Source: Gammaproteobacteria bacterium (GTDB lineage: Bacteria; Pseudomonadota; Gammaproteobacteria; DSM-16500). From it: DNA of 64,000 nt. The stretch lies in NCBI GenBank assembly GCA_041690995.1, contig JBEPVM010000001.1:9183-73182 (forward strand), in the 5' to 3' direction. Of this stretch, positions 13,952 through 18,353 are shown piece by piece. Position 1 is the stretch's first letter. Every line of letters starts with the position of its first letter. A model generated the notes under the pieces. The model was given only the letters and a program-made list of their open reading frames with translations, made no database searches and was not told the origin of the DNA. The position numbers and the translations under genes were made by a program.

Positions 13952-14221
13952 TCAAATAATTTCTTTAGTGGATTCTTTAATGACTTCTAATAGATAAATC
14001 CGCCGATGGTCGCTATGCAATACTTTAAAGAAAAAATTTCCAATCACGATAGATTCACCTTGTTTAGGCAAATGTCCTATACGGTGCATGATTAAATCAC
14101 CCATCGTATCTACAGTTTCATCATTGATCTCTGTATCAAAGTATTCATTAAAATCATCTACTGAAATGCTTGCTTTAACAGTATAAGAACCTGTTTGATT
14201 TTTTTCGATTTCATCGTCCAT
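13952..14221 (-). CDS. stand-alone CorC_HlyC (transporter-associated) domain protein; CorC/YbeX lacking its CBS pair
   Basis: 89 aa with ...YTVKASISVDDFNEYFDTEI..ETVDTMGDLIMHRIGHLPKQGESIVIGNFFFKVLHSDHRRIYLLEV, which matches only the C-terminal domain of CorC. It starts 18 nt after the ybeY stop, where full-length ybeX normally sits. Confidence 0.65.
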   Translation of the reverse strand: MDDEIEKNQTGSYTVKASISVDDFNEYFDTEINDETVDTMGDLIMHRIGHLPKQGESIVIGNFFFKVLHSDHRRIYLLEVIKESTKEII

Positions 14222-14917: not shown

Positions 14918-15499
14918 TTATTTAATTGACTGCTCGACCATGTAAACTAACTCTGTAATGGATTTAATCGCACCAGACTCTGAATATTCAATTTTTTTAG
15001 TTTTACTATTCCAGATCATAACTCCGAACCGATGCTCAAGAATGACTCCGTCTAGGAGTCTTGCTATTCTAGTTAAATCTTTATCTGCGTCCAGTATAAC
15101 AGAAAAATCTTTGCTTACCGTGTTGTCAACATTAATCAATATCCCGAATTTACACTTAGAAACTAAACAGTATCCAATCAGTTGACTCAGATCCTTTAAC
15201 CCCAATCTCTTAATTTTTTTAACTTCAAAAATAATGATTTCAAAAGCGCCGTTTTCCAAGTTTTCGACTAGTATTGATATGTCAAGACGTAATCTATGGA
15301 CTGATTTCCCAAAATGATTCAATGCATGACCCGCATCATATCCGTTCACGATTAATGTTCGTATAGTCGAACCGATCTCTCCAATTAACGCCTTTACAGC
15401 AAACTTATCGGATGATGTTAAGTTGGCGCGAAATATTTGAATTAACACCTCGGCTATTTCATCATAATAATCGACTTCTAACCTGTTTTTATCTTTCAT
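14918..15499 (-). CDS. PD-(D/E)xK-fold nuclease candidate (putative restriction endonuclease component)
   Basis: The D...E-x-K pattern is HRLRLDISILVEN...AFEIIIFEVKKIK, followed by a helix LKDLSQLIGYCL and a strand KFGILINV. The start at 15499 gives an ATGA overlap with the upstream ORF stop; the track ORF extends to 15523. Confidence 0.5.
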   Translation of the reverse strand: MKDKNRLEVDYYDEIAEVLIQIFRANLTSSDKFAVKALIGEIGSTIRTLIVNGYDAGHALNHFGKSVHRLRLDISILVENLENGAFEIIIFEVKKIKRLGLKDLSQLIGYCLVSKCKFGILINVDNTVSKDFSVILDADKDLTRIARLLDGVILEHRFGVMIWNSKTKKIEYSESGAIKSITELVYMVEQSIK

Positions 15500-16884
15500 T
15501 TTCTTTTTTCCAATATTATGCATTCTTCAAACATAGGCTGCCTCACTCGCAGTCTTACGCCATCTTTACTTATTAATTTTTCATTAAAATCATCATTAAC
15601 ATAACCCACTAAGCATGAAAAAAAATCCCCCTCGATTAACAAGCAGGTGCCTCTATTAGGCAATCCCACTTTTATCTTCAGTTTCTTTATTTCGTCTATG
15701 TTTTCATTTATTAAATCATTATAATTACCTAATACTCGTTTTCCCTTTATCTTGCTCTTGGTGGTTGCGGCATAAATATAAGCAATTCCTTGCATGATTT
15801 GATTTATGGGGAATCCATCTGATTTAGCGAGCCCAGACAAAAGAGCGTTTCTATCTTTCTTAAATATATCTGCCAAGAAGTCGATATCACAGCCGATAAA
15901 TTTATATTTCGTCTTGCGCAAGTATTCTTCTTTTTCAACAATAGCGTTAATTTCATCCTTATCCCCCTTACTAAGAATAGTGAAGGGACAAACATATTTT
16001 TTGAAATCATTTATGCTTTTAATCTTGCCATTTGATAGGCCTATTCCAAATAATTCGGCGAGATGAGTATAGTGAATAAAGTGCAAACCACGAATATAAG
16101 GCGGCAGCCAGTCACTATCCTCGTCAATATGTAGCGTGGTTCTTCCTTCTATTTTCGTCTCCTTACCAACCACTGTATTCGGCTGATCCTGCAATTCCTT
16201 ATTTTCCTCAGCGGACAGTTTTTTTGCCTGAAAAACAAAACCGCCTTTTAGTAGATAATCATCTAGCGCGACCCTGATTTTAAAACCTTTTTTCCACGCA
16301 CGATAATATCGATCGGTTCCACTATGTTGATTTGGATGATTCCATAAAATTTGGTCTGGAATACAACCCATTTTTAATAAAAGTCTAGCTACGCTAGAAA
16401 CAAGAGCGAAGTTCTTTCCTTTAAACTCCAGGGAAACGACTTGAAAATCATGAGTGAATCATCTATGAGTAGCAGCCAGACTTCCAACCGTATCGACAAG
16501 TCCCGAGATAAACGATCTAATCATCTCTTTGTTTGTGAATGCATGTTCAAGCTTTTCTAGATTAGCGCACTCTCTAAATTCGCCGCTATGACTTAAATTT
16601 AAATCGCTTAAATCTTCTTGTAATTGCCGGCTAATATTATTAAAAATAATTTTCCATGCGGAATCAATTTTGTAGAAAACGTCAATATCATATTGAAGCT
16701 TCCATAATGGCTTAATTCTTTTCAATATATCTTCGGCTATATTGCCACCTCTCTGAGGGTTGAGTTTTAAATCGCCCCATTTTTTATAAGGGAGAACAAT
16801 TTGAAGACCTCCAGACTTTAATATGCCTCCCCCGATCAGCAGACCCATTAGATAACATTTTTCTGTATTTAAGTGTGTAATCAT
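15496..16884 (-). pseudogene. single ~462-codon reading frame interrupted by one in-frame TGA (16459-16461); N-terminal part has two degenerate LAGLIDADG-like motifs; putative DNA-recognition/restriction subunit
   Basis: Track ORFs 16459..16884 and 15496..16371 share a frame. The 87 nt between them translate without a stop (FTHDFQVVSLEFKGKNFALVSSVARLLLK). The motifs are YLMGLLIGGG and FISGLVDTVGS, about 110 aa apart. The start lies 2 nt after the methyltransferase stop. Confidence 0.5.
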
Positions 16885-16886
16885 AG

Positions 16887-17924
16887 TTAATTTTTAAAAT
16901 ATTGTTCTCTTATCGACTTGGCTATATGAAAAGCAAGTCGCACAGGTACGGCGTTACCTATCATTTTGTATTTTTGACTAACAGAAGCGCCAATAAATTT
17001 AAAATCATCTGGGAAACTTTGAAATCTTGCTATTTCTCGCACCGAATACCTTCTATTTTCCGTTGGATGAACAATCCCCGAATTCTCTGGAGTAGATGCG
17101 GCCGTTATGGTTCCCATAATCTCGCCGAAAGAGAATCTTCGATAAAAATTAGGGGATCTATATTTTTTCATTTCATTTTTAATTTTAATAAGCCGAGGAG
17201 GTAAGTGCTTTTCTGGCACGTTTTTCCACGAGCCTCCTGCTGGAATATGCTCAATTATTTTTTTTGATTGGGGCGATAATTCCCAAACTTCGTGTTTCTC
17301 GCCTTTGGGCGGCTTTTTATTTATGACGCCTCCTACCGTTAATTCATCTTTATTATGAATAGGTGCGGGAAACACAAAACCCTTATCGATATCCTTTCTA
17401 ACGCCGACCATTACAACACGGTGCCTGTTTTGTGGAACACCATAATCGGCGGCATTTACAAGCTTGTAATAAAATGCGTACCCGATTTTTTTTAATTCGT
17501 ACTCCATCCTTTCTGGCATTTTCCTGCCTTCGTTATCTTTTGCGCTAAGAAATCCGCGAACATTTTCTAATAAAACGATTTTCGGTTTTTTTATCTTTAA
17601 AATTTGCAATACATGTTCAAATAAAGTTCCTCTGTCATCATTCACTGACTGTCTCTTTCCAGCGTTAGAAAATGGTTGGCATGGAATTCCTGCAAGCACA
17701 ATATCTGATGCGGGCAAGCTACGTTTATTTATTGTAGTTATATCTTTAATCTCAATCGGCCCAACATTTGTCTCGTAAGTTTCTTTTACTGACCGCTCAA
17801 TATCATTGGCATAAATAATATCGAATCCGGCAAGATGAAAACCAAAATCCAAACCACCGCAGCCAGAGAATAAACCGATAGCTTTGGGGTTGTTTTTTTC
17901 ATTTTTTTTCATTTTTGAATCCAT
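16887..17924 (-). CDS. DNA (cytosine-5)-methyltransferase
   Basis: 345 aa with all diagnostic motifs: I FSGCGGLDFGF, IV GIPCQPFS, VI LLENVRGF, VIII QNRHRV, IX REIARFQSFPDDF, X GNAVP. Confidence 0.92.
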   Translation of the reverse strand: MDSKMKKNEKNNPKAIGLFSGCGGLDFGFHLAGFDIIYANDIERSVKETYETNVGPIEIKDITTINKRSLPASDIVLAGIPCQPFSNAGKRQSVNDDRGTLFEHVLQILKIKKPKIVLLENVRGFLSAKDNEGRKMPERMEYELKKIGYAFYYKLVNAADYGVPQNRHRVVMVGVRKDIDKGFVFPAPIHNKDELTVGGVINKKPPKGEKHEVWELSPQSKKIIEHIPAGGSWKNVPEKHLPPRLIKIKNEMKKYRSPNFYRRFSFGEIMGTITAASTPENSGIVHPTENRRYSVREIARFQSFPDDFKFIGASVSQKYKMIGNAVPVRLAFHIAKSIREQYFKN

Positions 17925-18168
17925 AATAATGAGGCCTTTATTTAAAAATGAATATACTATTAGAAGTTTTGATAATCATGCCATTCCTCATAGGTTCTCG
18001 GTTATGATACTAATGATTCCAGAAGTGGAGGAGTGAAAAAAGGCGCCACTGCTTAAGATGGAGAAATACCAGTATCCAATTATGCATGTGGCGATTCTAT
18101 TTTCCAAGAATTTTTTGACAAGTAATATTGGAGAATGAGCAAACTGCATGCTTGCACCAACCACATTA

Positions 18169-18191
18169 TTATCCACAGAAACTGTGGATAA
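18169..18191. promoter_or_regulatory. perfect palindrome made of two convergent consensus DnaA boxes
   Basis: TTATCCACAG-AAA-CTGTGGATAA has 10-bp arms and a 3-nt spacer. Each arm contains TTATCCACA. It lies about 245 nt upstream of the methyltransferase start and downstream of epmB. Confidence 0.5.
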
Positions 18192-18353
18192 CAATGTGAT
18201 TAACTCTATTAAAACCTGAGGAAAAAATAAAAAATGATTCACATAAGGGTTTCCCCTTAGAGGGAGTAATCATTGTGAAATCAATCTGTTATAACGTATT
18301 TAAAAAAATTATTTTCCTGTGATTTTGAAAGAGTGATTGGCCATGCACGAGAT

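Follow-up and report, generated by a model that had tools for sequence, protein, structure and literature searches.

A methyltransferase-linked cassette pairing a predicted LAGLIDADG-fold protein with a separate PD-(D/E)xK nuclease: a candidate two-subunit restriction-modification system

The three-gene locus and its interrupted middle gene

This report concerns a three-gene cassette in a 64,000-nucleotide stretch of DNA, referred to throughout as the window, from a Gammaproteobacteria bacterium (DSM-16500; assembly GCA_041690995.1, contig JBEPVM010000001.1, positions 9,183-73,182 of the forward strand). Between window positions 14918 and 17924 the minus strand carries three tightly packed reading frames: a methyltransferase gene, a middle gene encoding what we call the large subunit, and a small gene. 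Most likely, the cassette is a restriction-modification (R-M) system that recognizes DNA through a fold new to such systems and has its nuclease on a separate protein, as was first suspected in an earlier interpretation made from the DNA letters alone, which we call the sequence-only reading.

The first gene (16887-17924, minus strand) encodes an apparently intact C5-cytosine DNA methyltransferase of 345 residues. All of the conserved motifs checked (I, IV, VI, VIII and X) are present, as FSGCGG, PCQPFS, ENV, QNRHR and GNAVP, and the protein matches PF00145 over its full length in the Pfam search (E-value 6e-81), TIGR00675 in the NCBIfam search (E 3e-72) and the Type II methyltransferase model of PADLOC (E 1.5e-102). 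The motifs and the PF00145 match confirm what the sequence-only reading had called an unambiguous C5-methyltransferase, and they give the window cassette the modification half expected of a Type II R-M system, a DNA methyltransferase with its full set of catalytic motifs. The closest solved structures, M.HaeIII and M.HhaI, align with the protein across the catalytic core only, so its target sequence cannot be read off from them.

The methyltransferase stop codon TAA lies at 16887-16889 and the ATG of the middle gene follows 2 nucleotides later, at 16882-16884. The middle gene (15496-16884, minus strand) comprises 462 codons with one nonsense codon among them: 141 codons are followed by an in-frame TGA at codon 142 (16459-16461, minus strand), then by 320 further codons in the same frame and a terminal TGA at 15496-15498, which together with the start of the small gene forms an ATGA overlap at 15496-15499. 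The small gene (14918-15499, minus strand) encodes an apparently intact protein of 193 residues; this agrees with the length of the homologues, and the alternative of 201 residues that begins at 15523 is probably overlong. The operon-like packing, the 2-nucleotide gap, the single in-frame stop and the ATGA overlap had all been described in the sequence-only reading, which divided the middle frame into 141+29+291 codons; each of these coordinates is borne out, and nearly all homologues of the middle protein are uninterrupted.

The TGA at codon 142 appears to be an inactivating lesion. It aligns with the second arginine of an S-H-R-R-F segment, a position occupied by Arg in 61 of 70 aligned sequences, by His in eight and by Asn in one. 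Since the aligned residue is a conserved arginine, the lesion probably arose by a single C>T change, CGA>TGA, which from the alignment would be its simplest origin. Recoding of the TGA as selenocysteine, tryptophan or glycine was considered and rejected, as the aligned residue is Arg and in no case Cys, and the gene itself has TGA at its end, which is therefore a stop codon in this host. The lesion looks recent; when the two halves are joined, the window protein aligns colinearly end to end with its homologues, at up to 60% identity, and all of the invariant residues are kept.

Searching with the joined translation gave 123 homologues, nearly all of 455-468 residues and uninterrupted, with 33-61% identity. 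None of the 123 has a Pfam domain, and those few with names are called 'hypothetical protein'. Among 1.84 billion representative proteins, a search with a family profile returned 260 clusters (at 50% identity) with E<=1e-3, 189 of them with E<=1e-10, and many family members come from human- and animal-gut bacteria. The joined protein had no significant match in Pfam, NCBIfam, PADLOC or the PDB sequences, with single-sequence and profile queries alike, so that the known restriction-enzyme family which the sequence-only reading had named as a possible outcome did not emerge among these curated collections. Likewise, the family had no match in PHROGs or in tblastn searches of phage and plasmid collections, and it is not visibly phage- or plasmid-borne there.

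Predicted folds and active sites of the two partner proteins

The large subunit was modelled with AlphaFold2 on P0001, a homologue 60% identical to the window protein, using an alignment of 70 sequences. The model (predicted local distance difference test score, pLDDT, 94.9; predicted template modelling score, pTM, 0.92) has a LAGLIDADG topology within residues 7-213. When it was compared with the PDB by Foldseek, the top 47 matches were all LAGLIDADG proteins. The intein endonuclease domains of TliVMA and PI-SceI, together with I-Tsp061I and I-DmoI, matched with E-values of 1e-5 to 3e-6 and a probability of 1.00, the target-normalised template modelling (TM) score being about 0.55-0.64 over the whole chains of I-DmoI and I-Tsp061I, and WhiA (3hyi, 8dy7) was also among the matches, with E ~2e-4. 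Comparison with BFVD yielded intein-bearing viral proteins and free-standing LAGLIDADG endonucleases. The LAGLIDADG-like fold proposed by eye in the sequence-only reading thus receives the same answer from both structure collections.

One could suppose that the fold call is an artefact, the middle protein being an unrelated alpha/beta protein and the small protein a conventional homodimeric Type IIP enzyme, for which 193 residues would suffice. Evidence for LAGLIDADG at the sequence level is sub-threshold throughout: among the 70 large-subunit sequences no LAGLIDADG model of Pfam matches significantly, PF05204 (intein homing endonuclease) matches below threshold at the second motif of 14 of the 70 (with an E-value of 0.002 at best), and 1 of 70 has a sub-threshold match to PF14528. 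The query-normalised TM-score is also low, 0.25-0.35, because just half of the large protein aligns. Nevertheless, we give this explanation very little credence, since all 47 of the best PDB matches and all of the best viral matches are LAGLIDADG proteins, the target-normalised score and the match probability are as high as stated above, and the middle protein is linked and conserved as tightly as the other two across two subfamilies.

The two helices singled out in the sequence-only reading carry exactly the motif strings given there, and their spacing, put at about 110 residues, is 114. Motif 1, YLMGLLIGGG (residues 11-20; 16825-16854, minus strand), coincides with a helix of residues 7-19 in the model and has Gly at position 8. 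Motif 2, FISGLVDTVGS (residues 125-135; 16480-16512, minus strand), coincides with a helix of residues 119-133, and it has Val at position 8 and an invariant aspartate, Asp131, at position 6. The canonical metal-binding acidic residue occupies the penultimate position of each motif, as do D20 and E117 in I-DmoI (PMC3384342). Here 68 of 69 sequences have Gly in motif 1, and in motif 2 the residue is Ile in 49 and Val in 21 of 70. The loss that the sequence-only reading had noted for the window copy (Gly and Val) extends to the whole family, as an acidic residue is found at the canonical position of either motif in 0 of 70 members. Judged by the model, the large subunit is a LAGLIDADG scaffold that lacks the canonical active site family-wide, and we infer that it would bind DNA without cutting it.

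Several conserved basic residues, H140, R141, R142, K199, K202 and R204, are located in or beside beta strands that the model predicts for the second LAGLIDADG repeat, and in homing endonucleases the strands of this repeat are part of the sheet that contacts DNA. On the model, codon 142 falls inside the predicted DNA-binding hairpin of this second domain. In the C-terminal region of the large subunit no acidic residue is conserved. A possible origin of this region as a diverged second copy of the small nuclease, serving as a pseudo-dimer partner, was considered and rejected, with an hhalign probability of 0.7% and no PDB match. In one of the two clades of the family, clade B, the large subunits display a conserved pattern C-P-x ... 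C-V-H-P ... H-x2-H-x-C-x4-C at P0001 residues ~240-285 (A1 columns 240-300), and these spaced cysteines and histidines suggest a zinc-binding element. The clade of the window protein has lost those cysteines and has kept the invariant H252 and R265.

The small protein has 80 homologues of about 190 residues, many of them on the same contigs as homologues of the large subunit. The segments RLDISILV and IIIFEVKK both occur in the small reading frame, and the predicted catalytic core consists of D73 (15281-15283), E92-x-K94 (15218-15226) and Q106-x3-Y110 (15170-15184), all on the minus strand. D73, E92, K94, Q106 and Y110 are invariant across 44 sequences and are kept in a clade-B partner of 30% identity. 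PF13366 (PDDEXK_3) scores 23.0 bits against this protein, with a cut-off of 22. The AlphaFold2 model of the window protein has a pLDDT of 94.2, and among the structures compared by Foldseek PaqCI, an enzyme of Type IIS, matches it best (E ~1e-3, TM-score 0.43-0.47); further matches are EcoT38I, EndoMS/NucS, MunI, MspJI and Can2. A profile of the small protein found nothing among the PDB sequences, where the fold comparison alone was informative. Taken as modelled, the small protein has the PD-(D/E)xK nuclease fold with the D...(D/E)xK signature, in keeping with the D...ExK pattern and nuclease fold that the sequence-only reading had assigned to the last reading frame.

Linkage to methyltransferases across genomes and decay of the large-subunit gene

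We assembled 84 loci, four by exact protein look-up and 80 from a scan of GTDB species genomes, and searched the open reading frames (ORFs) of all of them with profiles of the three proteins. The order methyltransferase-large-small, with the genes adjacent on one strand and their stops and starts usually overlapping, is present in about 78 of the 84, and the exceptions are mostly at contig ends. With so many homologues and the same order and strand adjacency in nearly all of the loci, the three-gene arrangement is not due to chance. Hosts belong to more than ten bacterial and archaeal phyla: they include Paceibacterota and Saccharimonadia (bacteria of the candidate phyla radiation), Alpha-, Gamma- and Deltaproteobacteria, many gut Clostridia (Firmicutes), Bacteroidota, Akkermansia (Verrucomicrobia), Brachyspira (Spirochaetes), Melainabacteria and the methanogenic archaea Methanocorpusculum and Methanimicrococcus. 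Such a patchy, horizontal distribution is as expected of R-M systems. Among the intact cassettes are those of Syntrophomonas palmitatica JCM 14374 (L012), Parablautia muri (L027) and Merdibacter massiliensis (L040). The three proteins divide into the same two clades, and the identities of the methyltransferase and the middle protein are correlated (Spearman 0.45, p 5e-5).

The pair of partner genes is not confined to C5-methyltransferases. A short-form subfamily (L085, L087-L089 and L093; also L090-L092) has LAGLIDADG-like proteins of 285-317 residues which lack the C-terminal region and whose motif 1 ends G-R-G. Where the upstream gene is readable, the order is an N6_N4 methyltransferase of PF01555, the short LAGLIDADG-like protein and an ORF of 160-168 residues. 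In L085, the single case checked, the protein of this 160-168-residue class matches the small nuclease and keeps the D...ExK...QxxxY core. A nuclease gene in conserved linkage with a methyltransferase, as a Type II R-M system should have, is therefore seen both in the C5-linked loci and in this N4/N6-linked sister subfamily, and the recurrence of homologous cassettes in other genomes, which the sequence-only reading had put forward as a check, holds for both. A full-length large and small pair also occurs at L004:4607-7972 without a C5-methyltransferase; a 445-residue methyltransferase of the N4/N6 type is placed divergently upstream, and prophage-like genes (lysozyme, capsid) adjoin the locus.

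This change of methyltransferase class bears on the possibility that the large and small proteins are accessory to the methyltransferase and take no part in restriction, the large one as a regulator resembling WhiA or a controller protein and the small one as a Vsr- or NucS-like nuclease acting on deaminated 5-methylcytosine (m5C), or the two as a mobility module. In favour of this, Vsr is a frequent companion of C5-methyltransferases, the structural matches of the large subunit include WhiA, a transcription factor with a degenerate LAGLIDADG scaffold, and those of the small protein include EndoMS/NucS. That the pair is linked equally to N4/N6 methyltransferases fits poorly with m5C-specific repair: since it stays with a methyltransferase despite the change of class, a role tied to m5C, such as deamination repair, is disfavoured, and its pairing with both kinds favours a restriction module able to work alongside protective methyltransferases of any class. 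Furthermore, the Pfam and NCBIfam searches gave no helix-turn-helix (HTH) or Vsr family match. Flanking genes vary from locus to locus, which means that there is no fixed homing site of the sort that mobility would lead one to expect, and the repeated inactivation of the large gene alone, described below, fits a toxic activity. We consider an accessory role improbable, and restriction remains the function that we favour for the pair.

Four large-subunit genes carry independent lesions, and the methyltransferase and small genes are intact in all four. Besides the nonsense codon of the window, the large gene is split into pieces at L079:5959-10391, in a gammaproteobacterial metagenome-assembled genome, by insertion-sequence (IS) insertions, about 3 kb of DNA that encodes a 388-residue mutator-type transposase and a 410-residue ORF, and in L080 and L084 it lies in two frames, probably by frameshift. 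The large gene makes up about 46% of the coding length, and the likelihood that all four lesions would fall in it by chance is about 0.05. Their confinement to this gene is suggestive of the usual decay pattern of restriction genes.

Two further loci depart from the common layout. At L068:4843-7398, from an uncultured member of the Clostridia, the methyltransferase and the LAGLIDADG-like protein are encoded in one uninterrupted frame with a linker of about 35 residues; this may be a natural fusion of methyltransferase and large subunit, which, if real, would tie both functions further. At L086:1741-4642 (GCA_025997455.1) two tandem large-subunit genes of 440 residues, which differ by one residue, are found beside AbiEii. 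We rejected the idea that they are two different subunits, as near-identical copies point to a tandem duplicate or an assembly artefact.

At other loci the cassette has mobile or defence genes as neighbours, among them recombinases with Prim-Pol in L001, AbiEii in L086 and prophage genes in L004; co-occurrence in defence islands was one of the checks suggested in the sequence-only reading. In the window, no convincing direct or inverted repeats flank the cassette, its G+C content is slightly lower than that of the flanks, and a scan of the locus for promoters and terminators gave background level only. Two features of the surroundings were seen in passing. Between the methyltransferase gene and epmB, at 18159-18201, there is a near-perfect 20-nucleotide inverted repeat, AACCACATTATTATCCACAG / CTGTGGATAACAATGTGATT, with a 3-nucleotide spacer. 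It includes two inverted copies of TTATCCACA, which we take to be the consensus DnaA box, and may act as an operator in regulation or serve to titrate DnaA. Downstream of ybeY, at 13952-14221, an 89-residue ORF corresponds to the CorC_HlyC C-terminal domain, with no full-length corC/ybeX there; the ORF is what a truncation has left of the gene or else a domain that stands alone, and the same arrangement with ybeY recurs on the independent contig L094.

A proposed split restriction enzyme and its relation to known systems

With moderate confidence, we interpret the cassette as an R-M system resembling Type II, with a restriction enzyme divided between two polypeptides, a recognition protein derived from LAGLIDADG and a separate PD-(D/E)xK nuclease. 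The large subunit would be a monomeric double-motif LAGLIDADG scaffold which has lost both metal-binding acidic residues and gained a C-terminal region of about 230 residues. Its beta-sheet saddle most likely serves to read the target sequence, and it would recruit or position the small subunit, perhaps by means of the C-terminal region, which is missing from the short forms. In the complex presumably formed by the two, the small PD-(D/E)xK subunit most likely cuts the DNA; host DNA would be shielded by the C5-methyltransferase acting on the same sites, and cleavage would accordingly be expected to be sensitive to methylation. Because the nonsense codon at position 142 inactivates the large subunit, restriction is presumably dead in the window genome. 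The gene sequences suggest that the window locus is probably a decayed R-M system which leaves a solitary m5C methyltransferase, itself probably active.

Several observations weigh against this interpretation. LAGLIDADG scaffolds normally read 14-40 bp, and methyltransferases like M.HaeIII and M.HhaI read 4-6 bp. The C-terminal region (residues ~230-462), which makes up about half of the protein and does not figure in the sequence-only reading, has no match in Pfam or PDB profile searches. The large subunit also retains an invariant polar set, D131, S151, E153, D177/Q178, N182-H183-P184-N185, K199, K202, R204, H252 and R265, and these residues could form a non-canonical active site, which leaves the claim that it only binds DNA insecure. 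Finally, degenerate LAGLIDADG domains can lose DNA binding altogether, as is described for WhiA (PMC3384342).

The invariant polar residues also lend themselves to a different division of labour within an R-M system: a strand-specific nickase with a non-canonical site would be formed by the large subunit, and the small subunit would cut the other strand, as in enzymes of Type IIT. D131, E153, D177, H183, K199, K202 and an H252-x-D-E-N cluster are found in or just after the second LAGLIDADG domain, and acidic residues at the positions of D131 and E153 are mostly kept in the distant short-form subfamily. D131 corresponds to motif position 6, which, going by the I-CreI sequence, we take to be conserved but non-catalytic in canonical enzymes, and we count this against a nickase, as we do the absence of both canonical metal ligands in 70 of 70 sequences. 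Known heterodimeric Type II enzymes do operate in the proposed way (PMC4081073). On balance we hold the nickase to be unlikely; the accessory roles and the fold artefact discussed above are less likely still.

Surveys of Type II restriction enzymes recognize five folds, PD-(D/E)xK, HNH, GIY-YIG, PLD and half-pipe (PMC2441816, PMC4081073), which agrees with the statement of the sequence-only reading that LAGLIDADG is not one of them; the word LAGLIDADG is absent from both of these standard surveys. A review of the host relatives of homing endonucleases treats WhiA as a bacterial relative of LAGLIDADG proteins and, in the part used here, names no LAGLIDADG restriction enzyme (PMC3384342). In the full-text literature we found no LAGLIDADG protein in R-M or defence systems; this search left the subscription literature and REBASE outside its scope, so an earlier description is possible. 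We rate it as slightly better than an even chance that the cassettes represent the first R-M family in which a LAGLIDADG recognition scaffold that has given up catalysis is joined by a separate PD-(D/E)xK nuclease, spread horizontally and comprising at least two subfamilies, with m5C or N4/N6 methyltransferases.

If this is true, a sixth fold would be added to those of Type II restriction enzymes, and LAGLIDADG would have been recruited into restriction, as is known for the HNH, GIY-YIG and PD-(D/E)xK families of homing endonucleases. The cassette would be a natural split version of a 'meganuclease binder + FokI-like cutter', and a natural meganuclease-type binder with a detachable nuclease would be relevant to enzyme engineering and to new specificities. 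It would also raise the question of how a scaffold that reads 14-40 bp is matched to the short site of a methyltransferase. The inactivation of the window copy lowers its local functional importance and does not affect the interest of the family.

Compared with the LAGLIDADG homing endonucleases I-DmoI and I-Tsp061I and with the PI-SceI domain, the cassette protein lacks both catalytic acidic residues (70 of 70 sequences) and has the extra C-terminal region of about 230 residues. Unlike those enzymes, it is encoded outside any intron or intein and almost always has the methyltransferase gene on one side and the gene for the small nuclease on the other. As its catalytic residues, its family-model matches and its genetic context all differ from what defines such enzymes, the large protein is not an active homing endonuclease.

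In structure, the large subunit is nearest to these monomeric enzymes and to WhiA (DUF199), another LAGLIDADG scaffold of bacteria that is catalytically degenerate and has been put to use in a host function. WhiA of T. maritima has Arg and Gly at the acidic positions (PMC3384342), and the short-form relatives share the Arg in motif 1. The large protein has no WhiA or HTH family match in Pfam or NCBIfam and, as it lacks the HTH domain, is not WhiA. The gene context is also different, and the patchy, horizontal distribution of the cassette contrasts with the conserved housekeeping locus of WhiA.

On the side of the nuclease, the best structural match of the small subunit is PaqCI, which, as far as the models go, is consistent with a nuclease module that needs a separate recognition module. 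The similarity is modest (E ~1e-3), and PaqCI carries its nuclease and its recognition domains on one chain, whereas here the nuclease is a separate polypeptide.

By analogy, the systems that would come closest in function are the heterodimeric Type IIT/IIS enzymes. BspD6I/BstNBI, BtsI and BsrDI have a large recognition and nicking subunit and a small catalytic subunit (PMC4081073). The large subunit of the cassette has no sequence similarity to those of BspD6I, BtsI or BsrDI, and no PDB sequence match; in contrast to the Type IIT heterodimers, it has a LAGLIDADG fold without a recognisable PD-(D/E)xK site. The cassette is known from its genes and from single-chain models, and its overlapping stops and starts are compatible with a two-subunit enzyme of the Type IIT kind. 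As in the Type IIT/IIS heterodimers, a gene for a large recognition protein is adjacent to one for a small PD-(D/E)xK protein of about 160-190 residues, and both are linked to a methyltransferase (PMC4081073).

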